The position numbers and the translations under genes were made by a program. From the IMG/VR virus record IMGVR_UViG_3300031992_000018, positions 104,027 through 168,026 of that record: DNA of 64,000 bases. One strand, written 5' to 3'. The stretch comes from a virus (lineage: Duplodnaviria; Caudoviricetes). This document shows, one piece after another, positions 2,102 through 59,074 of the stretch (positions within the stretch are counted from its first letter, which is position 1; every line of letters starts with the position of its first letter). The notes below the pieces were generated by a model that was not told the DNA's origin, did not search any database, and saw only the letters and a list, made by a program, of their open reading frames with translations.

Positions 2102-3379
2102 TTATTTTTCAAGCATTGCAAGTTCTTTAGCTGCTTTATTAAGAAGAGTAATCTTAACAGGATCATTCTTATATTGTTCTGCTAAAAGAGCAATCTTCTT
2201 TCTTCTTGCTGCGAATGCTGCTTCTTTATCAGCTTCAAGTTGTTCCTTGATTTGCTGATATTTTTCGGGATCAGCTTTCTTACAATCTTCATTGATTCTA
2301 TTTTCATAAACTTCTTTAAGATCAATACCTGTTACTTTAATAACATCCTTAAGAGCTTCTACCATAAAATCATAAGATTTAACTGAAGTACCAGCATTAA
2401 GTGAACGGTTAACTGAAAGAACTACATTATTACCTTCGATAATTGTGCAAATTTCACCTGTAGATGTCTGAAGAACATTAACATTATCAAGAGCGCGTAC
2501 ATTATCATAAGCTTCAAATACTTCTGCAATAGCACTTGTAACATTCATCCAATTCATCTTTTCATTTAATGACATTGGTTTAGAAACTGTATTACAATAC
2601 TGAATAAAATCAGCTGCATTACTAAAGCTTTCTTTAAGATCACCTTTTGTAAATACAAGACCTTCATCAGTTAAAGTAAATCTTGCTGTATCTCCATGAG
2701 TACCTTTATATTCATAGAAAATAGAATTATCTTCTCTAGAGAAACTTTCAAGAAGAGCATTAATTCTCTTGAATTTAATATCATCACAAACAGCTTCAGT
2801 AATATTATTTTCTTCATCTCTCTTATAAGTTTTACCAAGAACTGAGAAATAAGAATCTTTCTTATCTTCACTTTCTGTAACTACTACATAAGAAATAGGA
2901 GTTGTAACAACATATGTAGGAGCATGCATTTCATTAAGAGTTGAAGCATAAACATTCTTAAGAATCTGTCTAAATTCAGGAATAAATGTAAGGTTCTTCA
3001 TTGCACCAGCTTTAAGATATGATACAACTTCACTTTCATTCATTTCAAGAAGTTTATCTACTTGTTCAAGTCCCATCTTTGAAAGATAACCATAACTTGA
3101 ATTATTAGCATTGATTGATTCACAAGCTGTTGCAAGTTGCCAAGAAATATTATTTTCTTTAATAAAACTATTAACAGATTCTAAAATTCCTACCAAACCT
3201 GCATCGAAACTAAATTTAGCTGCTTCTTTAATAAAGCCATTAACGATACCACAGGTAACTGGATTAGAATAAATATATCCTCTGTAGTTTTGTAACATTT
3301 CTTTACCTGCTTCGGTAACTGCTTCAGTTCCGTTTATCTTACTTGCGAAGTCCAGGTTTTTTAGTAATTTTATATTCAT
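2102..3379 (-). CDS. Conserved-looking phage protein, possibly a head/core structural protein
   Basis: 425 aa; late-promoter variant at 3434-3446; several L/I-x-E sites; C-terminal coiled coil. Confidence 0.5.
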   Translation of the reverse strand: MNIKLLKNLDFASKINGTEAVTEAGKEMLQNYRGYIYSNPVTCGIVNGFIKEAAKFSFDAGLVGILESVNSFIKENNISWQLATACESINANNSSYGYLSKMGLEQVDKLLEMNESEVVSYLKAGAMKNLTFIPEFRQILKNVYASTLNEMHAPTYVVTTPISYVVVTESEDKKDSYFSVLGKTYKRDEENNITEAVCDDIKFKRINALLESFSREDNSIFYEYKGTHGDTARFTLTDEGLVFTKGDLKESFSNAADFIQYCNTVSKPMSLNEKMNWMNVTSAIAEVFEAYDNVRALDNVNVLQTSTGEICTIIEGNNVVLSVNRSLNAGTSVKSYDFMVEALKDVIKVTGIDLKEVYENRINEDCKKADPEKYQQIKEQLEADKEAAFAARRKKIALLAEQYKNDPVKITLLNKAAKELAMLEK

Positions 3380-3473
3380 AGTTTTAATATATTTGGTATA
3401 TTTATAGAATTTGTAGATTAATTCTACTTTTTATATATAATAATAAAATAATTTTAAAATGTATGATTATTTA

Positions 3474-3695
3474 TTATATTTTTGTTTTAATATCTTTAAT
3501 GTCACCAATTTTAATAACAATTGTATTTTCACTACATTTTGCTATTTCCCAATCATCAATTTGATTCCATTCATCAAAATCATCATCATCTGGTCTATGC
3601 CAAAAGAATTTACCTCTTAAATCAACTTCTAAAATATATCCTTTACCATTATTATTTATATTTTCATTTAAAAGGAGTTCAACTAAATTTTTCAT
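3474..3695 (-). CDS. Small leader-bearing protein (MKNLVELLLNE)
   Basis: Shared N-terminal motif; tight operon packing. Confidence 0.65.
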   Translation of the reverse strand: MKNLVELLLNENINNNGKGYILEVDLRGKFFWHRPDDDDFDEWNQIDDWEIAKCSENTIVIKIGDIKDIKTKI

Positions 3696-3719
3696 AATTA
3701 TATTATATATTTATTTATT

Positions 3720-4007
3720 TTATACTTTCCAACCAACTGATGTACCAACAGCAGTAAGTATAAGTCTTGATGTAAATAAACTTCCAAGAGGACCAGTTTC
3801 GTTAATACCAAGAGCCTTACAAATTGCTTTCATAACTTTAGGGCCAAATGTAGCACCAGTAATACCACCAACTATAGATCCTATAATTCCTTCTTCAATT
3901 GGAATATTATTTTCTTTAGCCTCTTGAAGTTTAGCAATTACATTATCATAAGTTAATTCCTCTGTAATAGGAGTTTCAGTATTTATAAAATCTTCTAATT
4001 TTTTCAT
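3720..4007 (-). CDS. Small leader-bearing protein with Gly-rich hydrophobic C-terminal part
   Basis: MKKLEDFINTE...IEEGIIGSIVGGITGATFG. Confidence 0.7.
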   Translation of the reverse strand: MKKLEDFINTETPITEELTYDNVIAKLQEAKENNIPIEEGIIGSIVGGITGATFGPKVMKAICKALGINETGPLGSLFTSRLILTAVGTSVGWKV

Positions 4008-4012
4008 ATTAA

Positions 4013-4441
4013 TTATTTAATGATTTTATCTATATCAAAATCAAATTCATCTTTATTATCAACTAAATTCTTTATAATTTCATCTTTTGTTCCTATAAAA
4101 ACTTGATTATCTTCTTCAGAATTTCCAGCAATAGCATTTAATCCAGGACGATAAAAAATATAACTTGTTTCATCATATATATTTTTAAAAATTAAATCAC
4201 CAACCTTAGGTTTATTATTACCTTTATCAGCAAAATAATTACTATTATCATATATAAAGTATTCTTCAATAAATTCTTTCATAGAAGAACCTTCTTTAAA
4301 ATCATCATTTGTTAATATATGATAAGGTTCAATCTCTTTAATTAATTTATTTAATTTACTTTGTGCATTGATTTCTTTATAATCAATTATATAATATATA
4401 TCTTTTTTTGTTTCTAAAATATAATCTTTTAAACTTTTCAT
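4013..4441 (-). CDS. Leader-bearing hypothetical protein (MKSLKDYILE)
   Basis: Shared N-terminal motif. Confidence 0.7.
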   Translation of the reverse strand: MKSLKDYILETKKDIYYIIDYKEINAQSKLNKLIKEIEPYHILTNDDFKEGSSMKEFIEEYFIYDNSNYFADKGNNKPKVGDLIFKNIYDETSYIFYRPGLNAIAGNSEEDNQVFIGTKDEIIKNLVDNKDEFDFDIDKIIK

Positions 4442-4461
4442 ATTAATTATTTAATAATTTT

Positions 4462-5232
4462 TTATAGTTTTTTACCAAGATTATTTATTGGATGAGGAAA
4501 TTCATTTTTCTTTGCAAGTTCTTCTAAATCTTTTTCATACTTCTCTTTTTCAAAAACAATTGTAAATAAGAAAGTATAAAGATCATCAAGATTATCAATA
4601 GCAACATCAAGTACTTGAGCCCAAGTAATTTCTTTTCTCTTTTCAAGTTTAGTTAAAGTATCTGCTGCATTAAGTAAAGAATTTTTTATAGAACATTCTT
4701 TACCATTAGTACCCATATGTTTAATAGCAAATAATTGAATATCACCATTAGCTCTTAATAAAAGTACAGGTTCTGATAATTTTTCATCTTTACATATAGA
4801 TAATATATCATTTCTTAATTTAGGACTCATACACATATTTCCCATATTAGAACATGGTTCATAAAATACAAGTGGTTCTGAATTGCTTCTTTGATATTCA
4901 TCATTGAATCTGCATTTATAACTAAATTCTCCATGTGCATTATATAAATCCATTACTTTAGGATAACCTGAAAAAATCTGTGTATATTTTGTAACAGGAT
5001 CTAATGGAGTACATGAACTAGGTTCTAAAGTATTTGCACATGGAACGCAAGGATCAACAGTACATGATGCTTCACCAGGAATATCACATCCATAAGAGCA
5101 ACCATCATCACAACATCCACAACATTCAGTTATTTCATATCCTTCAAGATTAGAAAGTTTTTCTACAATATTCTTATCTAATCCCTTTAAACATATATAT
5201 TGATTATTTATATATTCAGATAATTTTTTCAT
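4462..5232 (-). CDS. Leader-bearing protein with Cys-rich segment
   Basis: MKKLSEYINN; ITECCGCCDDGCSYGC...CTVDPCVPC. Confidence 0.7.
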   Translation of the reverse strand: MKKLSEYINNQYICLKGLDKNIVEKLSNLEGYEITECCGCCDDGCSYGCDIPGEASCTVDPCVPCANTLEPSSCTPLDPVTKYTQIFSGYPKVMDLYNAHGEFSYKCRFNDEYQRSNSEPLVFYEPCSNMGNMCMSPKLRNDILSICKDEKLSEPVLLLRANGDIQLFAIKHMGTNGKECSIKNSLLNAADTLTKLEKRKEITWAQVLDVAIDNLDDLYTFLFTIVFEKEKYEKDLEELAKKNEFPHPINNLGKKL

Positions 5233-5283
5233 ATCTTAATATTATATAATTTTCTATTAAACTTTAGAAAATGTAGTAATTCT
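5227..5283 (-). repeat. Diverged copy of the 6385-6440 junction (3' end of the DUF4494-like gene plus start of leader)
   Basis: tttcatatcttaatattatataattttctattaaactttagaaaatgtagtaattct aligns with tttcatatcttatattatataattttccattgagtttcagaaactgtagtgattct. Confidence 0.75.
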
Positions 5284-5286
5284 AAT

Positions 5287-5634
5287 TTATTTTACTAATT
5301 CTAATACTTTAGCTATAACCTTTTTAAAGATTTCACCAGCCTTTTCAGGTTCATTTTTAAATAATTGTAAACAAACTGCACTATGATAAGCATCATATAT
5401 TTTATTATTTATTTCTTTATCCCATTTTGGAGATTCAAAATAAACATCTAAAGCATTCATAGCTACATCATGAATCTTATTTACATCATCATTATTTTTA
5501 ACATCTAAATCTTTAACATCATCATATTGAGATGATAATTCATTAACCGATATTGCTTTATTTTCATTTATATTAAAATCAATATCAATTGTATTTGCAC
5601 TTGCATTGTTTAAATATTCATTTAAGCTTTTCAT
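5287..5634 (-). CDS. Leader-bearing hypothetical protein (MKSLNEYLN)
   Basis: Shared N-terminal motif. Confidence 0.7.
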   Translation of the reverse strand: MKSLNEYLNNASANTIDIDFNINENKAISVNELSSQYDDVKDLDVKNNDDVNKIHDVAMNALDVYFESPKWDKEINNKIYDAYHSAVCLQLFKNEPEKAGEIFKKVIAKVLELVK

Positions 5635-5654
5635 ATCTTTATATTATTTATTTA
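5609..5654 (-). repeat. 46-bp direct repeat of 5839-5884 (one mismatch)
   Basis: tttaaatattcatttaag[c/t]ttttcatatctttatattatttattta. Confidence 0.85.
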
Positions 5655-5864
5655 ATCAAAATATCCACAAGCATCCATTTCATCATAAAGTTCTTCTAAA
5701 GTTTTGTCTGTAAATGTATCCCACAAAAGATTTAAAATTTCTTCTGTATCTAATTTAGAAAAAGCTTTATTCATTTTTTCTTTATAATTATCTCTTTCTG
5801 ATTGAGACCATTCATTAATTACTTGTTCATCAGTATGATTTAAATATTCATTTAAGTTTTTCAT
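5652..5864 (-). CDS. Small leader-bearing protein (MKNLNEYLN)
   Basis: Shared N-terminal motif; VINE site. Confidence 0.7.
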   Translation of the reverse strand: MKNLNEYLNHTDEQVINEWSQSERDNYKEKMNKAFSKLDTEEILNLLWDTFTDKTLEELYDEMDACGYFD

Positions 5865-5906
5865 ATCTTTATATTATTTATTTATATAATTTTCCATTGA
5901 GTTTCA
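5838..5906 (-). repeat. Copy of the 6364-6423 junction
   Basis: 5838-5869 is identical to 6364-6395 (32 nt); 5882-5906 is identical to 6399-6423 (25 nt, the last codons of the 6399..6800 gene). Confidence 0.85.
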
Positions 5907-5910
5907 TAAA

Positions 5911-6390
5911 TTAATCCCAAGCGGCATCATCATATTCTTTTGTTCTTCTTATATTTTTATAACCATTATCAGTATATGAAAGTTTAGTATAAAGATTATT
6001 TATTAATTCATAAATAAATCCATAAGGTTTTCCAGGATCTTTTCTTTCAGAACATTGATACTGCCAACTGTCTAGCCATTTTAATATTTGTACCTCTGAA
6101 ACTTTTTCTTTAGGTTCAGAATATTTAAATGTAGATTTTGCTGCTTCTGATTTTCCATATCTATAACTTATTGCACGACGATTACAATTATATAAATCAT
6201 TTGCAATTGTTTGTTCATCTGCATCATCATACCATTTTATGTATGTTTTAGTAATTTTTGAAAGTAAATCAGATTTATTTATAAATAAGTCATGAATATA
6301 TTTTGCTAATTGATTAATTACTTCATCACTTTCCATAAATGCAGATTCATTAATGAGTGATTCATTTAAATATTCATTTAAGTTTTTCAT
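5911..6390 (-). CDS. Leader-bearing protein (MKNLNEYLNESLINE)
   Basis: Shared N-terminal motif; N..AI..RY and W.YQCSE motifs. Confidence 0.7.
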   Translation of the reverse strand: MKNLNEYLNESLINESAFMESDEVINQLAKYIHDLFINKSDLLSKITKTYIKWYDDADEQTIANDLYNCNRRAISYRYGKSEAAKSTFKYSEPKEKVSEVQILKWLDSWQYQCSERKDPGKPYGFIYELINNLYTKLSYTDNGYKNIRRTKEYDDAAWD

Positions 6391-6398
6391 ATCTTATA

Positions 6399-6800
6399 TT
6401 ATATAATTTTCCATTGAGTTTCAGAAACTGTAGTGATTCTCATATTATCAAGACCTTGTTTAAGATAAAGGTCAAGAATCTTTTGAAGTTCTGTATTGTT
6501 ATTAGCATAAAAAGGAACAGGATATTTAAGAGTCTTTATTGTTCCATCTTCCTGTTCTACTTCTTCTGCAAATTTTACTATAAATACTTTGCATGTTTCT
6601 TGATATTCTATATTACCAGCTGGTTTAAGATTCTTCATAAGACATACATCTTCAATCTCTCCTTCACCATTTAAATATTTTAATACAGCATATCCTGCTT
6701 CTGCAAAATTATTTTGATCACTAAGATAATACTCAGTGATAGGTTTTTCTTTACCTTTAGTGGTTAATATATTTCTACTTACCTTAACTCTGTACCACAT
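6399..6800 (-). CDS. DUF4494-like protein (Bacteroidota family)
   Basis: MWYRVKV...GKEKPITEYYL....FAEA...VSET pattern resembles DUF4494. Confidence 0.6.
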   Translation of the reverse strand: MWYRVKVSRNILTTKGKEKPITEYYLSDQNNFAEAGYAVLKYLNGEGEIEDVCLMKNLKPAGNIEYQETCKVFIVKFAEEVEQEDGTIKTLKYPVPFYANNNTELQKILDLYLKQGLDNMRITTVSETQWKII

Positions 6801-6812
6801 AATTATTATATA

Positions 6813-7247
6813 TTATATACTTTCTAAATCTATCCATCCGTATTTGCTACTATCTAATTTATCCTGAATTTTTTCAATAAAATCAATAAAAGAATAAATT
6901 ACATAATCTCTTGATGGATCAAATTCATCATCATCACCTTTATAATATTTAATATCATCTAAATCTGGATAAAGATTATTTATATATTTTTTAAAAATTT
7001 CTATTTCCATTTTTAATTCATCTTCTCTTTCTTTAGATTTATAGTTAGTTTCAAAATCTTCTCTTCTTTGAATACTTAAAAACTCTCCAATAGATTTATC
7101 ATCATTATTTATTATAAAAAATTGTTCACCACTAACACCATTATCGTCATAATGATACTGGAAAACTAATAATTTAATATCATCTATTTTTATATTTTTA
7201 TTAAGATGAAGTTTTTCTGAAATTAAATATTCATTTAAAGTTTTCAT
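6813..7247 (-). CDS. Leader-bearing protein (MKTLNEYLISEKLHLNK)
   Basis: Shared extended N-terminal motif. Confidence 0.7.
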   Translation of the reverse strand: MKTLNEYLISEKLHLNKNIKIDDIKLLVFQYHYDDNGVSGEQFFIINNDDKSIGEFLSIQRREDFETNYKSKEREDELKMEIEIFKKYINNLYPDLDDIKYYKGDDDEFDPSRDYVIYSFIDFIEKIQDKLDSSKYGWIDLESI

Positions 7248-7254
7248 ATATTAT

Positions 7255-7587
7255 TTATTTATTTATTTCATTATATCTTTCAATTATATCTAATAGTAAT
7301 TGTTTATTAGATATTGGATAAAACATTCTATCAATATAGATTCCAATAATATCTTTTGGTGCTGCAATATCTAATTCTTTATCAATCATATTTATTGTAT
7401 ACCATGAATAATCATTTCCTTCTTTTAAAAGAATTTTAGGTAATTGATCAGAATTACTTTTATTTGCATCATATCTATTTGTTCTATCGATTACTTTTTT
7501 ACATGCTTCATCTTTTTCTAAAATAGATTTTACAAATGCAAAAAAAGAATTTTTTCCTTCAGTTATATATTCATTTAAATTCTTCAT
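7255..7587 (-). CDS. Leader-bearing protein (MKNLNEYITE)
   Basis: Shared motif; late promoter at 7606-7618. Confidence 0.7.
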   Translation of the reverse strand: MKNLNEYITEGKNSFFAFVKSILEKDEACKKVIDRTNRYDANKSNSDQLPKILLKEGNDYSWYTINMIDKELDIAAPKDIIGIYIDRMFYPISNKQLLLDIIERYNEINK

Positions 7588-7678
7588 TATATTATATAAT
7601 CTAATTAAATAAAAATAAAATCTTTTGAATTATATTATCAAAATTATCTATAATACATTATCTAAATTAATTAATAAA

Positions 7679-7876
7679 ATGAAAAAAATATTTGTTTTAA
7701 TTATATCATTACTTTGTTTATTTGGTTGTTCTTCACAAGAAAGAGGTTCTAATGGAATTTCTGTTGAAAAGTTTACTTATGAACAACATGACTATTTGAT
7801 GTTTTACACAATAACTGGTCATTTTACTGGAGTAGAACATGATCCAAATTGTTGGTGTATGAATGATTATGATTAA
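7679..7876 (+). CDS. Small lipoprotein
   Basis: Start moved to MKKIFVLIISLLCLFGC, a signal peptide with lipobox. Confidence 0.65.
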   Translation: MKKIFVLIISLLCLFGCSSQERGSNGISVEKFTYEQHDYLMFYTITGHFTGVEHDPNCWCMNDYD

Positions 7877-7888
7877 ATTTTATATAAT

Positions 7889-8053
7889 ATGAGTAAATAT
7901 CCTAAAATGACACATTATCCATTACCAACTTCTATTAATGGAGAAATTTTTGAACCAGAAAAATATGAGAAATGTATTCAAGTAGAAGTCAATAAAGATG
8001 GTTCAATAGATACTTATGATTTTAATACATGTAAACATTTAGAAAGATATTAA
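7889..8053 (+). CDS. Small hypothetical protein (54 aa, not in the ORF track)
   Basis: ATG 7889 to TAA 8053 fills the gap between neighbours. Confidence 0.5.
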   Translation: MSKYPKMTHYPLPTSINGEIFEPEKYEKCIQVEVNKDGSIDTYDFNTCKHLERY

Positions 8054-8054
8054 T

Positions 8055-8699
8055 ATGGAAATTACACTTGTTACAACATTTGATTTAAGTCAAGATATTA
8101 CTCTTGATGCTTATAATGAAGATGAAAAAGTAGGTACTGCTGTTATAAAAAATAGTGAACTTACTTATTATAATCTTTTGACTCATACTGATGAAAAGTT
8201 TACTGAAGATAATCTTAATGAATTTATAGATTTTGTTTCTGAATTTAATCTTAAATTTAAAAAGGTATGGGATAGAAAATGGATAAAATATAATCCAAAT
8301 CCTCAGAATAATAACACTGGTGACTGTTCAATTAGAGCTTATTGTAAAGCTGAAAATCTTGAATGGAATACAGCATATGATATGGCCACTAAAGTAGGTA
8401 AAGAAATGTCAATGATTTGTGATGACCATAAAGTAGTTGATAAGATACTTACTGAAAAATTTGGTTATACTTATTACAAAGGAGATCATTGTTTTGTAAA
8501 AGATACTGATGGTAAAGGTAAACTTGAGAAAGGAAAAAAGAAAACAATTAATGAGTTTGCTATTGAACATCCTAAAGGAAAATATATTCTATGGGTTCAT
8601 GCTCATGTAGTTACAGTAATTGATGGATATTATTATGACTCTTGGGATAGTGGAAATAAAAAGATAAATGGTTATTATACAAAAGAAAAAGAGAGGTAA
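8055..8699 (+). CDS. Phage protein with papain-like Cys-His-Asp peptidase-type motif
   Basis: GDCSIRA...HVVTVIDGYYYDSWDSG. Confidence 0.6.
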   Translation: MEITLVTTFDLSQDITLDAYNEDEKVGTAVIKNSELTYYNLLTHTDEKFTEDNLNEFIDFVSEFNLKFKKVWDRKWIKYNPNPQNNNTGDCSIRAYCKAENLEWNTAYDMATKVGKEMSMICDDHKVVDKILTEKFGYTYYKGDHCFVKDTDGKGKLEKGKKKTINEFAIEHPKGKYILWVHAHVVTVIDGYYYDSWDSGNKKINGYYTKEKER

Positions 8700-8712
8700 A
8701 AACCTCTCTTTT
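8687..8712. terminator. Bidirectional terminator
   Basis: aaaagagaggt-aaaa-acctctctttt. Confidence 0.75.
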
Positions 8713-9126
8713 TTATTTTAGTAATTTATTAAATTCTGATTTAGAAACTTTAGTAAAATTATCAAAATTTTGTGCCCAATCATAACAAACCTTTTCATAA
8801 TTATCACCTGTTAAATCTCCACCTTCTAAAGAAAATGTAAAAGATTTAACATTATCAATAAATACATCCATATCTTCCCATGAACCTTCACCAAATCCAA
8901 CTTCGCCATCATATTTATCTAAATATGTATGTAATTTACCAACAATTTCTTGTCCTTTTAATTTACCAAAATTAAAAATAATTACAGCATCACGCATTGT
9001 AACATAATAACATGTATCAGGCCAGTCATAAGTATCTGTATTTTTTAACCATTTATTTATAAATTCAAATACTTCTTTTTCAGATAATGTTTTTGCTTCT
9101 AATAAAAATTCTACTAGATTTTTCAT
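8713..9126 (-). CDS. Leader-bearing protein (MKNLVEFLLE)
   Basis: Shared motif. Confidence 0.7.
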   Translation of the reverse strand: MKNLVEFLLEAKTLSEKEVFEFINKWLKNTDTYDWPDTCYYVTMRDAVIIFNFGKLKGQEIVGKLHTYLDKYDGEVGFGEGSWEDMDVFIDNVKSFTFSLEGGDLTGDNYEKVCYDWAQNFDNFTKVSKSEFNKLLK

Positions 9127-9147
9127 AATTTATATATATATTTAATA

Positions 9148-9534
9148 TTAATCCAAGTGATCAAAAGCTACTGGTTCACCATTCCAATAATAACAATATG
9201 TATATTTATCTAATTTTACATCTCCAAATTTATTTATTCTTGCTCTCTTTTCTTCTGTTTCTTTTGTATCAAATTCATCAGGAATTGGAACTGATTTACC
9301 AGCTTGACCATTACCAGATACAATTTTATCTTTTAATTTTCTAAAAGTAAATGTTTTACCACTAATTTTAACTATTTTATAAAAATCAATTATAATCATA
9401 CTATAACTAAAATTAGAATAAATAATATCACCTACTTCCCAATTTTCTGGTTTTGATTTATCTCTTTCTTCAACAGTTTCAATATCTTTATTAAGATGTA
9501 ATTTTTCTATTATATATTTATCTAATTGTTTCAT
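9148..9534 (-). CDS. Leader-bearing protein (MKQLDKYIIEKLHLNK) with a small beta-rich domain
   Basis: Start moved to MKQL; WEVGDII...FYKIVKISGK domain. Confidence 0.7.
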   Translation of the reverse strand: MKQLDKYIIEKLHLNKDIETVEERDKSKPENWEVGDIIYSNFSYSMIIIDFYKIVKISGKTFTFRKLKDKIVSGNGQAGKSVPIPDEFDTKETEEKRARINKFGDVKLDKYTYCYYWNGEPVAFDHLD

Positions 9535-9544
9535 ATTATATATA

Positions 9545-11053
9545 TTAATATTTATGTCCTCCTCTTGCATATTGAAGTCTCATTTGTTCTTCAATCATTG
9601 ATTCTGCATCTTCATCAGTAAAATCAGGATCATCATCACAAGCAGTAAATATCTTTGCACAAAGAACAAATGTTCTTAATGATAATTCCATACTTGATCC
9701 TTTTTCATTTAATTCTTTTAAATAATTATAAGCCTTTATTTTTGCTTTAGGCAATAATATTTTATTTTCAATATTTGGAAGTAATTTCTTTATAATTGAT
9801 AAAATCTCATCATTTGAAAAATCAATATCTTGCATAAAACATCTATTTCTTAAAGCTGTATCAAGTTGTCCTGCACGATAATTTGTTATAACAATAACAC
9901 CAGATTTAATTCTACATTTCTTTGGAATTTCTTGACCGTCATCATCAGTAATTTTACCAGCAATTCCATAAGTAACAAGTCTTCCTTCTGGAGATGTATC
10001 TGAATCAAGAGCTGCTTTAAGAATATTGATACAGTTTTCATCTGCTTGTGGACCTACAAGAGAGTCAGCATCATCAATTAAAATAATATCATTACTTTCT
10101 CTAAATCCATAAAGAGTAGCATAAAGTCTTCTTGCTGTACATTTGCCTTTTATAGTACAAAGATTTTCTCCTTCAATATAATTAGATTCTTTAAGTTGTT
10201 TCTTTACTCTATATGTTTTACCAACACCAGGAGCTCCACAAAGAATAAGTGCTGGTTGACGACCTTTAATAACTAAAGAAATATATTTTTCCATTTCTTT
10301 AAATATCTGGTCAGGATCTTTTCTATTACTTTGAGCATCTTTAATTTCCTTAGAATCTTCAATTTCAACTCTTTTACCTTTAGCAATTGATACTTTAATA
10401 TCTTCTGAACCACCTTCTTTTATATATTTATAAATATCTTTAACATCATTTTCGATATTATTTAAATTAGAGTTTGAAATTTTACTCTTAGCAATAAATG
10501 ATTCATGAATTAAATCTTTATCAATTTTAGAAAAAATATAATTTAATTTACCAATATTATATTTAGATTCTTTTAAATTATCTTCTTTATTAGATAATTT
10601 TTTAACATCTTCTTCACTAATAGAATATTTTTTAGAATTTACTATTGTCCATACTACTGGTAATAATTTAGCTATATTTGTACCTAAAGTATAAATAGAT
10701 AAATCTGCTTTTCCTTTACCAGACCAATATACATCTAAATCTTTAAAAAAGTCTATAGAATATACATCTACAGAATCATTATCATTAATCCAATTAAATT
10801 GAAAAAATGAAGTTTTAGCATAATCTGATTTATCAATAACAATAAATTGTTTTGATGTACATTTTTCACCATCAATTGTAGTATCTACAAAACCAATAAG
10901 AGGAACAAGACCATTGATATGCTTCTTTAAAATTGATTCAATTTTTTCAATAGCCGCATCAATATCTTTTTCTCTAAATGATTCATTTAATTTTTCTTTA
11001 TTTTGTATATCTTGATTACGCTTATTTACGAATTCTAAAAAATTATATCTCAT
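9545..11053 (-). CDS. AAA+ ATPase
   Basis: Walker A GAPGVGKT, Walker B IILIDDAD, sensor ITN, ALRNR arginine finger; late promoter 11072-11084. Confidence 0.8.
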   Translation of the reverse strand: MRYNFLEFVNKRNQDIQNKEKLNESFREKDIDAAIEKIESILKKHINGLVPLIGFVDTTIDGEKCTSKQFIVIDKSDYAKTSFFQFNWINDNDSVDVYSIDFFKDLDVYWSGKGKADLSIYTLGTNIAKLLPVVWTIVNSKKYSISEEDVKKLSNKEDNLKESKYNIGKLNYIFSKIDKDLIHESFIAKSKISNSNLNNIENDVKDIYKYIKEGGSEDIKVSIAKGKRVEIEDSKEIKDAQSNRKDPDQIFKEMEKYISLVIKGRQPALILCGAPGVGKTYRVKKQLKESNYIEGENLCTIKGKCTARRLYATLYGFRESNDIILIDDADSLVGPQADENCINILKAALDSDTSPEGRLVTYGIAGKITDDDGQEIPKKCRIKSGVIVITNYRAGQLDTALRNRCFMQDIDFSNDEILSIIKKLLPNIENKILLPKAKIKAYNYLKELNEKGSSMELSLRTFVLCAKIFTACDDDPDFTDEDAESMIEEQMRLQYARGGHKY

Positions 11054-11089
11054 AAATTATAATATTAATTATATATAAAAATAAAATTA

Positions 11090-16366: not shown

Positions 16367-16705
16367 TTATTTATTTTTAAATTCTATGTCATGTATATAT
16401 ATTGTTGTAAGATCATCTTCATCAAAGGTTATAAAAAAACTATCTATATAATCATTATCAAAAAATTTCTTTTTTATCTCTTTAATACAACTATGTAAAA
16501 AAGATGATGATTTTTCTTTTTTAAATTTTATATATAACCATTTATCATCATCTATAATAAATGTATAATCATCATCTTTATATAAAAATTCTCCATCAAA
16601 ATAAGATTCTAGATCAAATAATAGTTTATCCATATTATCTGATTTTACATTTATATTTTTATTAAGATGTAATTTTTCTGTTATATATTGACTTAAATTA
16701 TTCAT
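16367..16705 (-). CDS. Leader-bearing protein (MNNLSQYITEKLHLNK)
   Basis: Extended motif; late-promoter variant 16726-16738. Confidence 0.7.
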   Translation of the reverse strand: MNNLSQYITEKLHLNKNINVKSDNMDKLLFDLESYFDGEFLYKDDDYTFIIDDDKWLYIKFKKEKSSSFLHSCIKEIKKKFFDNDYIDSFFITFDEDDLTTIYIHDIEFKNK

Positions 16706-16772
16706 CATTAAAATTTTTCTTTATACAATTAAAAATAATTTTATTTTTATTTAATTATATAACACAGTATTT

Positions 16773-17478: not shown

Positions 17479-17510
17479 AAAAAGAGCTCTTTTTAAAGAG
17501 CTCTTTTTTT
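17479..17510. terminator. Bidirectional terminator
   Basis: aaaaagagctctt-tta-aagagctcttttt. Confidence 0.75.
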
Positions 17511-19170
17511 ATTTTTCTTCTCTACTATGTTTATTGTATTCTGATGAATGAAATTCTTCTTCAAAAGTATGTTTAGCACCAGGATTAATCATATAAGCCA
17601 TTTTTGCCATTATATCTCTATTAAGAAGAACTGGTGTTGATTTCTTTCTATTATCAACAAGAGCAAAATCTACATTAAGTAATTTTCTTGAACCAATCTG
17701 AATACAAGGTACTATTACAGTAACTCTTTCTTCACGTACTTGTCCAACTATAGGGTTTGAAACCCCACTTTTCTTAAATCTATATGTTTTACCATTTATA
17801 ACTGCTGATACTTTATCTCCAACTACTTCAACTGATTCACAACCAATTGTAGAAGCTTTAGCGCCATTACCTGTATCAAATTTAGCTTCAAGTTCAAATT
17901 CTGAATCATTATCCATAATAAACTTCATATTTTCAATATAACCAATTGATTTAGGTGCAAGTACAAGCTCATTAATATCATTGATTGCATCAAGAAGTAT
18001 CTTACAGAAATTTTCTCCAATTACTTCAGAAATACCTTCTGTACCTGGAGAGCAGTTATATTCAAGAACAACATTATCTCCAATCTCTGGATTAGAACCT
18101 TTTACAAGAGGCATAATATCAACAGCACACCAAGGCATACCTGAAATCTTTGCTACATTTAATGCAATATCTTCTTGTTCTTTAGTAATTTCAACTTTTT
18201 CAGCTTCTGCACCAAGAGATACATTACTTCTGAAATCACCACCAAGTTTCTTTCTCTTCATACATGCAAGAATTGTTTGTTTTGTTCTGCTTGTAAGAAC
18301 ATGCACTCTGATATCACCACCATCAGCTTCTTCTTTCTTTTGAAGAAGTAATTCTCTTTCAGGGTCAATAGCAAATATTGCTTGAAGAATTGCAAGAATA
18401 CCTTTACCTGTTGTCATGAATACACCTGTTCCACCATGACCATCAAGAATCTTTACAACATATTCTCTCTTTTCATCTTCTTCTTTATTTTCACCTACTT
18501 CTTTATAAATAAGTTTAAGTTTCTTCTGAAGAGATTCTTCACCTTTAGATACATCTTTTGAAGAAAGAAGACAGAATTTTGGTTGTGGAATATCATATCT
18601 TTTCATAAGAACAGCTGAAGCATATTTATTACTTGCTCTTTTAGCTGCTTGAATTGGATTAAGAACAAAAAGACCCCAATCTTGAAGTTCTTTAATACAT
18701 TCCATACATTCTTCACTATCTTGTGCACCAAGACGTGCAATAACTATTGTATCTATATTTGATTGATCTGTTATAGTAAATTTCTCTTTAGAATCTTTAA
18801 TTTCAATTTTCTTATCATCTGCACTATAATCAACTTCTTCAGAAACAAATGTTATAAGATTTACATCTGTATTTTTAAGTGCATCTTGAAGGTTTTTAAG
18901 AGTTTTATTTTTTGAAGCATCTCTTTCATTTGTAAAGAAGATAATATTCTTAAAGAAATATTCTTCATTTCTTTTTATTTTTTCAGCATTCTGTACAGTA
19001 TCATTTTTTGCACCTAATTGTTCAGCTGCTTGATCAACTGCTTGGTCTTCTGAACCAGGTTTTTCTGGATTTTTTTCTGCACCAGTATTTTCTTCTGCTT
19101 CTAAAATAGATTCTACTTCATCTATTGATTTAATAAATTTTGATTCTAAAAGTTCAGTTAAAGTTTTCAT
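17509..19170 (-). CDS. rimK: RimK-like ATP-grasp ligase fused to a C-terminal retropepsin-like (RimB-type) protease, with leader
   Basis: NKY, VVKILDGHGGTGV, GDIRVHV, FRSNVSLG, VDI, LEYNCSPG; C-terminal AKFDTGN...VLLNR. Confidence 0.8.
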   Translation of the reverse strand: MKTLTELLESKFIKSIDEVESILEAEENTGAEKNPEKPGSEDQAVDQAAEQLGAKNDTVQNAEKIKRNEEYFFKNIIFFTNERDASKNKTLKNLQDALKNTDVNLITFVSEEVDYSADDKKIEIKDSKEKFTITDQSNIDTIVIARLGAQDSEECMECIKELQDWGLFVLNPIQAAKRASNKYASAVLMKRYDIPQPKFCLLSSKDVSKGEESLQKKLKLIYKEVGENKEEDEKREYVVKILDGHGGTGVFMTTGKGILAILQAIFAIDPERELLLQKKEEADGGDIRVHVLTSRTKQTILACMKRKKLGGDFRSNVSLGAEAEKVEITKEQEDIALNVAKISGMPWCAVDIMPLVKGSNPEIGDNVVLEYNCSPGTEGISEVIGENFCKILLDAINDINELVLAPKSIGYIENMKFIMDNDSEFELEAKFDTGNGAKASTIGCESVEVVGDKVSAVINGKTYRFKKSGVSNPIVGQVREERVTVIVPCIQIGSRKLLNVDFALVDNRKKSTPVLLNRDIMAKMAYMINPGAKHTFEEEFHSSEYNKHSREEK

Positions 19171-19259
19171 ATATATTTTATAAAAAATTTATCTATATAA
19201 AAATAAAAGATAAAAGAATAAATATCTATATTATATAAGAAATATATTTAAGATAATGA

Positions 19260-19829
19260 ATGATAAATTCAAAGTTAAATGATTATTTATATAATATAGA
19301 TAATTTAAGAAATATTGACCGTTATCAAATAGCTCATAAGATTACAAAAGAAACAGTTGCTGAACATTCTTTTTTTGTTGCTTCTTATATATTAAAACTT
19401 CATGATTATTATAATTTTAATTTAGAGAAGGCACTTACTATGGGTTTACTTCATGATTTTAGTGAAGTATTTATTAGTGATGTACCTCATCCAATTAAGA
19501 TGGCTTTTCCTGATATAAATAAACAATTAGAAAAAGCTGAATATGATATGAATAGTAAATATATATCTAAGGATTTTGCTGATAATCTTGAAGAATTTAA
19601 TAATCTTACGACTGTTGAAGGTAAAATTGTAAATGTAGCTGATATTCTTTCAGTTATATCATATTCTAAATATGAAATATCTCTTGGAAATTCTCAATAT
19701 ATGAAAGATGTTCTTAATAGAGGATTAATGAGAATTAAAGATGCTCTTGATTTAATTGAAGATAATATAAAACCAGAATATAAAACATTTGATATATTAT
19801 CTGAAATTATTGATTTTTCAAAACGATAA
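19260..19829 (+). CDS. HD-domain 5'-deoxynucleotidase/dNTPase (YfbR-like)
   Basis: RY...ETVAEHSF, LLHDFSEVFISDVPHPIK, VADIL. Confidence 0.85.
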   Translation: MINSKLNDYLYNIDNLRNIDRYQIAHKITKETVAEHSFFVASYILKLHDYYNFNLEKALTMGLLHDFSEVFISDVPHPIKMAFPDINKQLEKAEYDMNSKYISKDFADNLEEFNNLTTVEGKIVNVADILSVISYSKYEISLGNSQYMKDVLNRGLMRIKDALDLIEDNIKPEYKTFDILSEIIDFSKR

Positions 19830-19901
19830 TTATATATTAGATTATATGGAGAAATATAGTCTATATAATCTATGTTTTAAAATATATTACAAATTAAATA
19901 T

Positions 19902-22900
19902 ATGAGTAAAAGAAAAGATCTTAAAAAGATTATGGTCATAGGTAGTGGTCCAATTGTAATTGGTCAAGCTGCCGAATTTGATTATGCTGGTACACAAGCA
20001 TGTCTTGCACTTAAAGAAGAAGGATATGAAGTTATTCTTGTAAATTCTAATCCAGCAACAATTATGACAGATACTAATATTGCTGATAAGGTTTATATGG
20101 AACCTTTGACTTTTGATTATGTATCTAAAATTATTTATAAAGAACGTCCAGATGGTATTGTACCAGGTCTTGGTGGTCAGACAGGATTAAATCTTGTAAC
20201 AGAACTTTCACAAAAAGGTGTTCTTGATGAATGTGGTGTAGAAGTTCTTGGTACATCATTTGAAAGTATAAATATTGCTGAAGACAGAGAAAAATTTAAA
20301 AACTTTTGTATTGATAATAATATTCCTGTAATTCCTTCGGAGATTGTACATGATATTCAAGGTGCTATTAATGCAGCATCTTCAATTGGATATCCTGTTG
20401 TTCTTCGTCCAGCATTCACTCTTGGTGGAACAGGTGGTGGATTTGCTTATAATGAAGATGAATTAAAGGAACATATGATAAATGCTCTTAATCTTTCACC
20501 TATTCATCAGGTACTTATAGAAAAGAGTGTAAAAGGTTATCGTGAGATTGAATTTGAAGTAATGAGAGATAACAATAACAATGCTATATGTATTTGTGGA
20601 ATGGAAAATGTTGATCCTGTTGGAATTCATACAGGTGATTCAATTGTTGTTGCTCCATGTATAACAGTTTGTAAAAATGATTATGAAAGGTTAAAAAATG
20701 ATGCTTTAAAGATTATTAAGAAATTACAAATTGCTGGTGGATGTAATGTACAGTTTGCTCTTTCTCAAGAAGATGAAGATAAATATTATATTATTGAAAT
20801 TAATCCTCGTGTATCTCGTTCATCAGCTCTTGCATCAAAAGCATCTGGTTATCCTATTGCAAGAGTAACTGCTAAGATTGCTGTTGGTTATAATCTTAAT
20901 GAAATAAATCTTGATGATCATACAGCATTGTTTGAACCTTGTCTTGATTATATAATTGCTAAATTCCCAAGATTTCCATTTGATAAATTTGAAGAAGCTA
21001 AAGATGAACTTTCAACTCAGATGAAAGCAACTGGTGAAGTTATGTCAATTGGTAAAACTCTTGAAGAAGCTTTCTTAAAGGGTCTTAGAAGTCTTGAAAC
21101 AAAAACATATCATTTATATAATTCTAAATTTGATCATTTTAAGAAACAAGAACTTATTGAATATATTTCAACTGATGCATATGATAAGATTTTTGCTATA
21201 GCACAACTTCTTAGGATTGGTGTATCTGTAAAAGAAATATTTAATAAGACAATGATATGTGAAGATTTTTTAGTAGCATTTAGAAATATTGTTGAATTTG
21301 AAGAGAAGGTAGAACATTATGGCAAAGATGAAAATGCTGATTTTGGTGATATAATTTATAGAGCAAAGTTATTAGGTTTTTCTGATGAAGAAATAGCTCA
21401 TCTTATAGATACAGATCCTTATGAAATTACTAAATATCGTTTAGATAATGGTTATGTACCAAAATATAGAATAGTTGATTGTTATTGTTATAGATATTCT
21501 ATTGATATAAATGGTAAAGAATATGAACATAAGAGATCAATTCCTTATTTCTATTCAACATATAATGATCTTGTAGAAAATGAATCAGTAAGAAGTAATA
21601 AAAAGAAAATCATAGTTCTTGGTTCTGGTCCTATACGTATTGGTCAAGGTGTAGAATTTGACTATTCTACAGTACATGCAATATGGGCTATCAAGAATAT
21701 GGGTTATGAAGCTATTATCATTAATAACAATCCTGAAACAGTTTCAACAGACTACACTATTTCTGATAAACTTTATTTTGAACCTCTTACTGTTGAGGAT
21801 GTAATGAATGTAATTAATTTTGAAAAACCTGATGGAGTAATTGTATCTCTTGGTGGACAAACAGCAGTAAATCTTGCTAATCCTCTTTCTAAGTTCAATA
21901 TTCCAATTATAGGTACTGGAATTGAAGCAATTAATAATGCTGAAGATAGAAAGATTTTTGAAAGCATTCTTGAAGAACTTAATATTCCTCAACCAAAAGC
22001 TATTGCTGTAACAAATATTGAAGATGGTTTAAAAGCTGCTAATGAAATTGGTTATCCAGTACTTGTTCGTCCAAGTTTTGTTCTTGGTGGTCGTGCAATG
22101 ATGATTGTTGGTAATGATGATACTCTTAAGCATTATCTTGCTAATGCTGTTGCTCTTGATGAAAAATCTCCAGTTCTTATTGATAAATATATACAAGGTA
22201 TTGAGTGTGAAGTAGATGCAATATGTGATGGAGAAACAGTACTTATTCCAGGTATAATGGAACATATTGAAAGAACTGGTGTTCATTCTGGAGACTCTAT
22301 AAGTATATATCCTTCAGTTAAATTAACTGATATAAATAAACAAAGGATTATTGAATATACAAAGAAACTTGGTGTAAGAATTGGTATTAAAGGATTATTT
22401 AATATTCAATATATTGCTAATGGTGATGATATTTATGTTATTGAGGTAAATCCAAGAAGTTCTAGAACAATTCCATTCTTAAGTAAGTCTACTAATATTC
22501 CTATGGCAAAAATTGCTACAGAAATAATGTTAGGTAAGAAATTAGTTGATTATGGATATCCTGAATATATTCCTGAAAAGAATTCATATTTTATCAAAAC
22601 TCCTGTATTTTCATTTAATAAACTTATAGGTGTTGAGTCATATTTGTCACCAGAGATGAAATCTACAGGTGAGGCGATAGGTATTGATAAAACTTTCACA
22701 AAAGCTCTCCAGAAGAGTTTGTGCGCCTCTGGATTAAAGATTAAAGACCATGGTACGATATTCGTAAGTGTATATGATGATGATCGTGAAGAAGTATTAC
22801 CTATTATAAAGAGATTTTATGATTTAGGATTTAATATTGAATCTATAAATGGTACAGCTACTTTCTTAAAAGAACATGGTATACATACTAAGACTCTTAA

Positions 22901-29553: not shown

Positions 29554-30309
29554 ATGAATATACTTATAACAGGAAACAGAGGATTTATTGGTGGACATTT
29601 ATCTAAATATTTAAAGGATAAAGGTCATAATATTATAGGTATAGATAGAAAAGATGGTAATGAAGTATTAGATATTAATGAAGATACTTTAAAAGATATT
29701 GATATTATAATCCATTTAGCAGCACAAACATCAGTTTGGAATACTAATATTGAATTAATAGAAAATGATAATATAAAATCTTTTATTCATATATTTAATT
29801 TATGTAAAAAACTTAATAAAAGATTTATATATGCAAGCAGTTCATGTTCGATAAATATAACATCGATGTATGGATTAAGTAAATATTTTGATGATTTATA
29901 TTTTGAAATTTATAAATGGGATAAATGTATTGGATTAAGATTTCATAATGTATATGGTAAAGATTCAAGAGAAGATACATTATTAGGAATTTGTTTAAAT
30001 AATTCAGAAATTACATTATATAATAATGGACTTAATTATAGACATTTTACTTATATAGATGATGTATGTAAAAGTATAGAAATGTCTTTTAATTTAAAAT
30101 CTTGTATATATAATGTATTTAATCCTCAAGAAAATTCAGTATTAGAATTTGTCAATGAAGTTTTAAAATATAAAGATTTAAAAATTAATTTAATTGATTC
30201 TATAAGAGAACTTGATAAAGAAAAACAGCTTATAGATGATACTAAAATAAATTTAATAGAAAATAATTATAAAAATATAAAAATAGGCATAAATGAGATA
30301 TTTAGGTAA
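29554..30309 (+). CDS. NAD-dependent epimerase/dehydratase
   Basis: ITGNRGFIG, HLAA, YASSS, YGLSK, RFHNVYG. Confidence 0.88.
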   Translation: MNILITGNRGFIGGHLSKYLKDKGHNIIGIDRKDGNEVLDINEDTLKDIDIIIHLAAQTSVWNTNIELIENDNIKSFIHIFNLCKKLNKRFIYASSSCSINITSMYGLSKYFDDLYFEIYKWDKCIGLRFHNVYGKDSREDTLLGICLNNSEITLYNNGLNYRHFTYIDDVCKSIEMSFNLKSCIYNVFNPQENSVLEFVNEVLKYKDLKINLIDSIRELDKEKQLIDDTKINLIENNYKNIKIGINEIFR

Positions 30310-31216: not shown

Positions 31217-31239
31217 AGAAATATAATAATAATATATAT

Positions 31240-40954: not shown

Positions 40955-41042
40955 ATAATATTTTATATAATAATCTATATAAAAATAAAATTAAATATTA
41001 TTACATTTCTATATTAAAATAGAAATATATCTATTTATATGC

Positions 41043-57681: not shown

Positions 57682-57713
57682 AAACAGGAACTAATCATTA
57701 GTTCCTGTTTTTT
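57680..57713. terminator. Bidirectional terminator
   Basis: aaaaacaggaactaa-tca-ttagttcctgttttt. Confidence 0.8.
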
Positions 57714-58603: not shown

Positions 58604-59074
58604 TTATCTTTTTTTTCTAAATACAATTACAATTACACTTGTAAAATTTGAATAATAAATAAATTCATTATTATCTGTTTCAAATGTTGAACCTAAACTA
58701 GTTGTTTCTTCAGATAATCTTGCTTTTATATATTTATACCAATTTGGAGATGTTATATAATTTCTATAATAATTTTTTATTACATCTTCATCAGTAATTG
58801 TAACAAATTTATCTAATTTTTTCTTTTTTATTGCTGCCCATATATGTTTATCCATATATAGTTTATCATTAATTAGACATTCAACTTCTTCTATTGATTC
58901 AATTTCATTTTTTCTTACCCAATCTTCAAAAGATTTTAAAATATCTTTAATCATTGATTGATCAAGATTTAAACAACAAATATCTGTCATTATTGAAACA
59001 ACAGTATTTTTTAAATTTTTATTATCCTTTGTCAAATGTAACTTTTCAAATATATATGAATTAATCTTCTTCAT
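58604..59074 (-). CDS. Leader-bearing protein (MKKINSYIFEKLHLTK)
   Basis: Extended motif. Confidence 0.7.
   Translation of the reverse strand: MKKINSYIFEKLHLTKDNKNLKNTVVSIMTDICCLNLDQSMIKDILKSFEDWVRKNEIESIEEVECLINDKLYMDKHIWAAIKKKKLDKFVTITDEDVIKNYYRNYITSPNWYKYIKARLSEETTSLGSTFETDNNEFIYYSNFTSVIVIVFRKKR

Follow-up and report, generated by a model that had tools for sequence, protein, structure and literature searches.

An uncultured T4-related jumbo phage of the ruminant (sheep) gut carries an operon of small, mutually unrelated genes that probably gains and loses members by recombination at the short repeats of its gene junctions. Unrelated gene bodies lie between these repeats, related phages differ from one another with breakpoints at the repeats, one-sided scars derive specifically from the end of a single gene (gene A), and the phage possesses a T4-type portal and terminase. 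We consider it likely that gene A and the scars serve as homology arms by which cassettes are added or removed behind A, and that the N-terminal leader of the encoded proteins resembles the capsid-targeting sequence (CTS) of T4. The recombination pathway, the origin of each first scar and the direction of each gain or loss we infer from these observations.

The window, i.e. the whole analyzed stretch of 64,000 nt, is part of a 168-kb contig (59% complete, 218 genes) from a phage with a GC content of 25%. Its stretch from 7587 to 3474 is a single ten-gene operon, since a single promoter-like motif precedes it and no terminator-like sites were found in 3300–7800; within this operon, the region of the repeats is the most plastic. 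Promoter-like sites in the same region are fewer than in shuffled sequences, and an Rfam search of 3000–9800 gave no match. The 12-nt promoter-like motif occurs six times in the window compared to 0.79 expected copies, each time 20–35 nt upstream of a gene start, and leader genes follow five of the six copies. Nine of the ten operon genes start with the leader. The operon contains the following features:

7609–7620, minus strand: promoter-like motif, sole copy 5' of the ten-gene array
7255–7587, minus strand: leader gene, 110 aa, conserved frame gene with orthologues in most related arrays
6813–7247, minus strand: leader gene, 144 aa, in a variable slot upstream of gene A that holds unrelated families in other arrays
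6399–6800, minus strand: gene A, DUF4494-like, 133 aa, without leader, conserved frame gene; its 3' end is the source of the scars
6364–6398, minus strand: native junction, 8-nt spacer (6391–6398) plus the 27-nt leader-coding start of B
5911–6390, minus strand: cassette B, 159 aa, leader with Glu10
5882–5910, minus strand: scar 1, 29-nt non-coding repeat of the gene A end (28/29 identical)
5838–5881, minus strand: 17-nt spacer and leader of C, copy 1 of the spacer-leader repeat
5652–5864, minus strand: cassette C, 70 aa, leader without Glu10
5608–5651, minus strand: 17-nt spacer and leader of D, copy 2 of the spacer-leader repeat
5287–5634, minus strand: cassette D, 115 aa, leader without Glu10
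5242–5286, minus strand: scar 2, 45-nt repeat of the gene A end in decayed form (37/45 identical), with an in-frame stop
4462–5232, minus strand: gene E, 256 aa, Cys-rich, leader without Glu10, conserved frame gene marking the end of the most variable stretch
3474–4441, minus strand: three leader genes of 142, 95 and 73 aa at the operon end; those of 95 and 73 aa are frame genes in relatives

On the minus strand the end of gene A is followed by an 8-nt spacer and then by the 27-nt leader of B; this native junction occupies 6364–6443. With one mismatch, the terminal 29 nt of A (6399–6427) reappear at 5882–5910, immediately 3' of the B stop codon. Allowing up to three mismatches, the 28-nt scar pattern was found at these two places only in the window, and 100 shuffles gave 0 matches. 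The second scar (5239–5286, 48 nt) differs from 6396–6443 at eight positions and lies immediately 3' of the D stop codon; in 200 shuffled genomes of 168 kb, no match came closer than 15 mismatches. A 46-nt unit of spacer and leader is present once 5' of C and once 5' of D, the 17-nt spacers in front of both being identical. The 27-nt leader sequences of B and C are the same, those of D and of the gene at 7247 show two and three mismatches, and no match was found in shuffles. All these repeats run in the direct orientation, none is inverted, and their occurrence goes well beyond chance expectation. The recurrence of the DUF4494-like gene end and of the spacer and leader in front of the following genes, as described in the earlier note, was thereby reproduced (28/29, 37/45 and the 46-nt unit), including the observation that the gene A remnant at 5227–5283 is the longest and most mutated one (37/45 versus 28/29 for scar 1).

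We compared the window with about 20 related metagenomic arrays. The frame of the arrays is fixed, and unrelated cassettes are exchanged in every slot; one breakpoint lies within the leader, about 25 nt from its start, and the other coincides with the stop codon. Between the window and array L022 homology stops 18–25 nt into each leader and returns at the stop codon or the next junction; in the slot of the 7247 gene it stops 25 nt into the leader and returns 10 nt before the stop. From a point 9 nt before the stop of their differing cassettes onward, arrays L040 and L044 share 98.1% identity over 3.95 kb; leftward, up to 26 nt into the leader, identity is only 89%. Directly behind A, 13 different families were found in 17 arrays, and slots upstream of A and far downstream vary as much as the A-proximal one. 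A near-identical contig of 28,083 bp from assembly ERZ27256871 with the same gene map, compared by gene coordinates, has the order A, 17-nt spacer, D (99% identical), 54-nt spacer, E and is devoid of B and C, which represents either gain or loss of these two genes. The presence/absence comparison of relatives proposed in the earlier note therefore finds differing cassettes and breakpoints in the repeats. Its idea of repeated insertion at one site holds insofar as at least six arrays have copies of the A end and these lie exclusively downstream of A, but every slot varies.

Leaders of unrelated cassettes are more alike when the upstream neighbor is the same (identity of 0.77 versus 0.69 otherwise). 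Judged from these sequences, leader DNA seems to follow the slot as well as the body, and its 5' part tends to stay with the slot. The suggestion that each insertion tags the newcomer with a leader is thus only partly retained: exchanged cassettes already possess leaders, and homology ends inside the leader.

At least six arrays contain scars of the gene A end; six different cassettes precede them, and an intact A invariably lies upstream. Among 166 gene tails from 74 families it is the tail of A only that is duplicated, always downstream and on the same strand. Five or six left edges are independent; measured from the stop of A, they range from -29 to about -47. Behind B the same left edge is present in the window, L034, L023–26, L029, L030 and L057, and it is retained in lineages whose B differ by 6–12%, suggesting that the scar behind B goes back to one old event. 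This scar is 28/29 identical to A in the window and about 23/28 in L023; conversion is therefore indicated, and scar identity does not serve as a clock. A simple age gradient along the array, with the B scar old by its shared left edge yet 28/29 identical to A, was rejected. The notion that the newest insertions lie nearest to A is partly borne out: L036 has an extra cassette directly behind A, followed by a fresh scar and the older B. The scar of L036 differs from its own A by three substitutions, all synonymous in the frame of A, but by only one from the A of B-bearing arrays, and therefore derives from the intact A of another lineage. Scar 1 of the window together with its 17-nt spacer corresponds to the native A junction of L043 and L044. 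Scar 2 and the scar of L033 have a common left edge and four derived substitutions. Given their persistence over long divergence in a very compact genome, the scars could be useful.

Since each junction consists of an AT-rich spacer and 27 nt of leader DNA, every body is flanked on either side by a short direct repeat. The phage recombination machinery would use these repeats to swap, add and delete bodies among co-infecting relatives and loci; a RecA/UvsX gene was not found in the contig fragment. A cassette once joined to the last 29–48 nt of A would carry the scar as right-hand homology arm, with intact A as the left-hand arm. Homologous recombination could then insert the unit of cassette plus scar in any related genome exactly between A and the first cassette, and delete it likewise, giving a polar, integron-like array without an integrase. 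The first joint between a cassette and the A end would need an illegitimate or unequal event. More tentatively, the A end with the resident spacer and leader might form a self-renewing landing pad, in which scarred cassettes are always insertable in first position and the landing body takes over the 5' part of the resident leader. If so, it would constitute a recombinase-free polar platform for gene capture that builds arsenals of injected proteins and spreads them through the phage population.

We also considered whether function alone keeps the repeats alike, the junction being a translation start region and the A-like pieces selected elements instead of scars. Folding of the junction RNA gave z-scores of +1.05, +1.84, -1.04 and +0.44; three of the four junctions (+0.4 to +1.8) are thus unstructured as a start region would be. 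The part adjoining the spacer is the best-kept part of each scar, and the scar common to the window and L033 persists with different neighbors on both sides. Most junctions in all arrays, however, have no A-like piece, and the scars contain stops and indels and decay from the left. D is followed by a scar in the window and in L057–59 and lacks it in L044, and scars as part of fixed cassette units were rejected for this cassette. Furthermore, the identical leaders of B and C have a rarer Asn codon in common, which selection at the protein level does not need, and breakpoints between relatives lie exactly at the repeats. We regard this explanation as unlikely.

Slightly less likely still is a dedicated capture system comparable to integrons or CRISPR arrays, in which a specific enzyme inserts at the A-end site, duplicates the site and leaves a chronological array. 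It would explain why scars are found downstream of A only and why A's tail alone is duplicated, why their left edges cluster within 20 nt around a 13-nt palindrome in A, and why L036 and L032 have new cassettes between A and older ones; one promoter serving promoterless cassettes also agrees with it. However, no IntI-type tyrosine recombinase (PF00589) is present in the 168 kb, while 14 of 14 control genomes matched this profile, and folding revealed no attC-like structure at the junctions, which are less structured than shuffles. The integron-like capture suggested in the earlier note is weakened by both results. The duplicated length is variable (29 to 48 nt), slots away from A vary equally, the old but nearly identical B scar deprives the order of its value as a clock, and the polarity is explained by homologous arms.

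Descent of all these genes from one ancestral leader gene by tandem duplication of whole genes and subsequent divergence, with the junction similarity as a remnant, is very improbable. The common leader and the similar small size would fit, as would a weak similarity between the array genes at 4441 and 7247 (E 0.002, obtained without composition correction). The bodies of B, C, D and E, however, are mutually dissimilar (blastp against a 13-protein database, all E > 0.1), and neither they nor 26 cassettes of relatives show body similarity, true orthologues apart; the earlier description of the intervening genes as unrelated was correct. Duplication of a leader gene moreover leaves the copies of the 3' end of the leaderless gene A unexplained, and cassettes occupy different slots in different arrays.

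A metagenome assembly artefact, in which strains were misjoined at short repeats, is scarcely credible: one contig ends inside C and the 1.5-kb contig L029 may be a chimeric cycle, but the longest exact repeat of about 32 nt is below assembler word sizes, scars recur in many samples and studies, and the array is not an artefact because separate assemblies agree on the order A-B-(C) and on C-D-E, in the latter case down to the 17- and 54-nt spacers. The two ends of L029 overlap by 38 nt, which closes the contig in the order A-B-F12-F18-A; this is explained just as well by a tandem duplication or by mixed strains.

A leader resembling the T4 CTS was found on 35 of the 218 contig genes, compared to 0.57 expected. 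Its consensus has Lys at position 2, Leu or Ile at 4, Tyr, Phe or Leu at 7 and Ile or Leu at 8; Glu at position 10 is present in 21 of the 35 leader genes as opposed to 15 of the 183 other genes. Conserved positions are 4, 7, 8 and 10. In the T4 CTS, the key hydrophobic residues at positions 4 and 7 are important for targeting, and Ile or Leu at 8 and Glu at 10, the protease site, for processing (PMC9026906). The B leader agrees with T4 at all four positions, whereas those of C, D and E have no Glu10. The leader is also found on unrelated families such as DUF285 repeat proteins, a Zeta-toxin-like kinase and a RimK-like ATP-grasp enzyme. The phage encodes a T4-type portal (Portal_T4, PF07230, 248.6 bits) and a terminase with best matches to the gp17 type. 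A gp21-type protease (PF03420, Peptidase_S77) and a gp23-type capsid protein (PF07068) were not found in the contig (59% complete) or in four related contigs (26–44% complete), and the part of the Tenacibaculum phage PTm1 annotation that was examined shows no protease. Most large structural candidates gave no match in PHROGs or Pfam, and a 425-aa neighbor protein has none among GenBank phages. By analogy, the ten-residue leader most likely works like the T4 CTS. It would take the protein into the prohead and be cut off after Glu10, and the protein would therefore be injected with the DNA; we infer both packaging and cleavage.

The array is a form of the T-even internal-protein hotspot. T4 injects its internal proteins as anti-restriction weapons, and the loci encoding them are hotspots of an arms race. 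T4 Ip1–3 and Ip4–10 of its relatives are likewise unrelated small proteins that have only an N-terminal leader of about ten residues in common, with conserved positions 4, 7, 8 and 10, and are encoded in hypervariable loci of phages with T4-type heads. The window phage differs in its leader consensus, its distant host clade and its jumbo size, and T4 has three leader genes versus 35 here in 59% of a genome. To our knowledge, polar scars specific to one neighboring gene have not been described for these loci. The internal proteins differ in number, order and identity among relatives (PMC12373910; PMC3012670; PMC9026906). The PeSL elements of T4-type phages, an early promoter with a stem-loop terminator (Arbiol et al. 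2010, PMC2839356; Comeau et al. 2014, PMC4122927), are similar in being short repeated intergenic elements that bracket ORFans in hyperplastic regions, with indels and replacements between close relatives and crossovers in the repeats by homologous recombination without a dedicated recombinase. In contrast, the repeat of the window is composed of a spacer and coding leader DNA and has no promoter, terminator or hairpin at each junction; as counterpart of the excised PeSL mini-circles, which carry one chimeric repeat, L029 is an ambiguous candidate. Integrons resemble the array in having one promoter, promoterless cassettes of unrelated function bounded by repeats, and polar additions next to a fixed site. 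Apart from the missing IntI and folded attC, the window differs in its direct, partly coding repeats, in the variable length of what is duplicated and in variation that extends beyond the proximal slot. For the phiKZ-like giant phage SPN3US, dozens of injected proteins are described that are packaged in the head and cut after Glu by the prohead protease (PMC5694885, PMC10052503). The propeptides of such ejection proteins are long and diverse, unlike the uniform ten-residue tag of the window, and the abstracts report no arrays of cassettes with repeated junctions.

This uncultured gut phage applies the internal-protein logic of T4 on a much larger scale. The arrays also illustrate the growth of such loci, in which short coding repeats would be the exchange points and scars of a conserved neighboring gene the arms that provide polarity without a dedicated enzyme, and they offer a concrete, testable model for the assembly and exchange of injected effector sets among phages. 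Leader plus scar represents a simple signature for finding injected effectors in metagenomes, and the leader arrays provide a natural template for getting foreign proteins into phage heads.

Gene A matches Pfam DUF4494 with 26.4 bits at a cut-off of 27 (profile positions 1–132 of 139), which makes DUF4494-like a fair name; precomputed DUF4494 matches on its relatives are marked weak or unmarked. It is 67–92% identical across 17 arrays and best conserved at the C-terminus. No solved relative was found by sequence. The predicted model has a pLDDT of 84 and matches ribosomal protein chains only weakly (TM about 0.3), therefore no function was drawn from it.

B has no protein family match, and neither B nor E has relatives in IMG/VR. 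Homologues of B with 79–93% identity were found only in related phage arrays, all with leader; B together with its scar has also moved to a different locus, one without gene A. P0008, considered as a leaderless homologue of B, was discarded as evidence: the product comes from a contig of 593 nt and is only half-matching. The sole homologue of C (90%) is located in the slot upstream of A in another array, and D is found directly behind A in the near-identical contig. Orthologues of E in related arrays are 47–54% identical. In most cases the scar joints lie 0–2 nt 3' of the cassette stop codon, a position for which random breakage offers no obvious explanation.

The array consists of ten tightly packed genes running from 7587 to 3474, all on the minus strand and separated by spacers of 8–54 nt. 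Nine of them start with the leader, a ten-residue N-terminal tag resembling the T4 capsid-targeting sequence; the exception is gene A (6399-6800, minus strand), which is DUF4494-like (26.4 bits vs a cut-off of 27). The bodies of the leader genes B (5911-6390), C (5652-5864), D (5287-5634) and E (4462-5232) are mutually unrelated. A unit of 17-nt spacer and leader is present before C and again before D, and the end of A recurs as two non-coding copies, termed scars:

5882-5910, minus strand: scar 1, last 29 nt of A, 28/29 matching, directly after the stop codon of B
5239-5286, minus strand: scar 2, last 45 nt of A plus 3 nt of spacer, 40/48 matching, directly after the stop codon of D

B is bracketed by the end of A and scar 1, and C by two spacer-leader copies. 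Shuffling controls gave no matches comparable to these repeats, and gene order and spacer lengths were reproduced in separate assemblies, which confirms the repeats of the A end and of the spacer-leader unit as described in an earlier note. No inverted or folding repeats were found at the junctions, where the RNA is less structured than shuffles, and no Rfam family was matched.

The ten genes have a single phage motif, at 7609-7620, and no terminator-like sites were found within the array. This 12-nt T-rich promoter-like motif, likely a phage promoter class, occurs six times in the window vs 0.79 expected, each time 20–35 nt upstream of a gene start, with leader genes downstream of five copies:

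2045-2056, 7609-7620, 11075-11086, 16739-16750, 19197-19208 and 40979-40990: copies of the 12-nt T-rich motif

Homologues of B with 79–93% identity are present in metagenomes; about 20 related arrays came from the contigs that carry them and from scanning metagenomes with gene A. These share a fixed frame in the order gp6-like baseplate gene, AAA ATPase, 110-aa leader gene, A, E, 95-aa and 73-aa genes, 425-aa gene. Each slot between frame genes holds differing, mutually unrelated cassettes, nearly all leader-bearing. Directly behind A we counted 13 families across 17 arrays; the slot before A is also variable, and the sole homologue of C occupies it in another array. Farther relatives (425-aa protein 55% identical) carry variable leader-gene arrays at the same locus without gene A, and in still remoter phages the DUF4494 gene adjoins a RecA-like gene instead. 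The 95-aa leader gene (3720-4007), whose product has a hydrophobic, glycine-zipper-like C-terminal half, is among the few array genes kept even in the 55%-identity relatives. Genes 9148-9570 and 8713-9126 are missing from contig L022, in which the AAA gene abuts a reverse-strand block. The gene at 9148-9570 probably starts at Met13, the first residue of its leader; in a near-identical contig it is annotated with 128 aa, not 140.

Comparison of close relatives places the breakpoints within the repeats. Between the window and L022, homology stops 18–25 nt into the leader DNA and is regained at the stop codon or at the junction that follows, in all four replaced slots. Arrays L040 and L044 share 98.1% identity across a stretch of 3.95 kb that starts 9 nt before the stop codons of differing cassettes; further left, through A and 26 nt of leader, identity is only 89%, which makes the pair a clean mosaic. 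Strongest of all is the case of a contig of 28,083 bp with the same gene map as the window, length for length, from which B and C are absent: A, 17 nt, D (99% identical), 54 nt and E follow each other. Although read from gene coordinates only, it passes the check proposed in the earlier note, presence or absence of cassettes in close relatives with breakpoints in the repeats.

The simplest account has two layers. In the first, spacer and leader form a short direct repeat before every gene, and recombination inside it swaps the bodies; such exchange is shown by the breakpoints. Mean leader DNA identity within a family is 0.89 behind the same neighbour and 0.80 behind another; for unrelated cassettes the values are 0.77 and 0.69. 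Leader DNA thus tracks both slot and body, in agreement with this layer. Between lineages, the leader of B is more divergent than its body.

The second layer concerns the scars. At least six other arrays also contain copies of the A end:

L032: behind cassettes of families F38 and F39
L033: behind F41
L034, L023-26, L029, L030 and L057: behind B
L036 (on one contig with L022): behind an extra 125-aa cassette
L057-59: behind D

In a control with the final 30 nt of 166 genes (74 families) of these arrays, only the tail of A recurred elsewhere, always downstream and on the same strand. No scar reaches 50 nt, and each is joined 0–2 nt after a stop codon or overlaps one. Their left edges, counted from the stop codon of A, lie at about -29, -29, -35, -44 and -45 to -47, which requires a minimum of five separate joining events. 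The scar behind B has an identical left edge everywhere and hence a single origin, yet 28/29 positions match A in the window and only about 23/28 do in L023, where the B gene has diverged by ~9%. Scar 1 with its 17-nt spacer equals exactly the native junction behind intact A in L043 and L044, and the 8-nt spacer before B in the window is that of the other A-B arrays. In L036, three substitutions separate the scar from the A gene of that array, all of them synonymous in the frame of A, but only a single one separates it from the A alleles found where B comes directly behind A; the scar is thus a tail taken from the functional A of another lineage. B and its scar are also found at a second locus without gene A (L030 1383-4522, L031), where a WYL_2 gene and a separate promoter motif precede them and a leader gene of more than 760 aa follows. 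The variation and relocation of the B scar, the junction match in L043 and L044 and the source of the L036 scar show the scars behaving as active recombination partners and not as passive fossils. Scar 2 and the L033 scar have a common left edge and four derived substitutions in common, and both neighbours differ; D carries the scar in the window and L057 and lacks it in L044.

After a cassette has become joined to an A end, this scar would provide one homology arm and intact A (402 nt, best conserved at its 3' end) the other. A double crossover with any related genome would put A end, spacer, leader and cassette before the A end of the recipient, which would become the new scar; the reverse crossover would delete the cassette. 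Such arms would explain the polarity, the restriction to gene A, the young-looking proximal scar, and why B is first in line before many different second cassettes. The age gradient of the earlier note, with the newest insertions nearest to A, is unsafe.

The first joint might be an illegitimate join between co-infecting relatives, kept since both cargos were retained. Alternatively, an unequal leader-leader crossover would yield two full copies of A, with most of the second deleted later. The two ends of L029, a 1.5-kb contig (1511 nt), overlap exactly over 38 nt, so that it closes into A-B-F12-F18-A; it shares 98% identity with L034, which has the order F12-F18-A-B. It would be the two-copy intermediate of the unequal crossover, and equally well a mix of strains; besides such a mix, either a circle or a tandem duplication holding two complete A genes may lie behind L029.

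In mechanism, the nearest precedent comes from T4-type phages and their PeSL elements, short repeats between genes in which crossovers occur and for which inverse PCR revealed mini-circles (PMC2839356); PeSL elements comprise promoter and terminator, whereas the array junctions have neither. The T-even ip hotspot is the nearest functional precedent. Repoila et al. reportedly proposed already in 1994 that ip genes are shuffled through conserved motifs at gene ends. What is new here are the A-specific, one-sided scars with their proposed role as homology arms. The pattern of the earlier note, with cassettes, breakpoints in the repeats and additions directly behind A, holds, and what it describes is confirmed and recurrent in nature. 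The likeness drawn to integrons and CRISPR arrays extends to polarity only. No tyrosine recombinase was found in 168 kb.

The IMG/VR contig (168,026 bp, GC content 25.3%), whose final 64 kb form the window, is rated 59% complete and the full genome is probably near 280 kb. Near-identical DNA is present in metagenome runs from sheep gut, and parts of it in runs from bovine and goat gut. Among its products is a T4-type portal (PF07230, 248.6 bits), and the large terminase is best matched by gp17-type enzymes from Tenacibaculum jumbo phages, cyanophages and T-even phages; by these matches, the phage is evidently a distant relative of T4. At 17852-20122 on the whole contig, a 147-aa leader gene lies directly downstream of the portal gene, where T4 has small prohead-core genes.

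A strict pattern finds the leader at the start of 35 of the 218 contig genes, where shuffled N-termini would give 0.57; two of these 35 resemble signal peptides. Position 10 is Glu in 21/35 leader genes vs 15/183 other genes, and the conserved positions are 2, 4, 7, 8 and 10. In T4 experiments on the ten-residue capsid-targeting sequence, residues 4 and 7 were assigned to targeting and 8 and 10 to processing (PMC9026906). This T4 sequence is the sole common feature of T-even internal proteins, which are located in a genomic hotspot (PMC12373910; PMC3012670). Since neither a gp21-type protease nor a gp23-type capsid gene was found in the contig or four searched relatives, all incomplete, we can only infer packaging and cleavage of the leader proteins. 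That leaders tag newcomers for packaging, as proposed earlier, is at most partly supported. F7 cassettes (L034 5927, L037, L038, L040, L044) lie directly behind A or a scar with the usual spacer and without leader; array entry therefore does not strictly need one.

Unrelated families bear the leader, among them DUF285 repeat proteins, a 553-aa RimK-like ATP-grasp enzyme (17509-19170) and a 301-aa Zeta-toxin-like P-loop kinase (57691-58596); the latter two are candidate injected host-modifying enzymes. About ten proteins have a second motif behind the leader, EKLHLNK plus N/D-I-K, which may mark a class of longer propeptides or act as a second signal for sorting; in relatives this position is taken by EKLKVNSK or EKLKIN:

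1133-2020, 6813-7247, 9148-9570, 16367-16708, 58604-59074, 59061-59465 and 59458-60144: genes of EKLHLNK-motif proteins in the window
7427, 7947 and 28248: the same, positions on the whole contig

Two adjacent large proteins encoded at 30293-33528 have long Ser-Gly/Asp dipeptide runs and a common N-terminal module.
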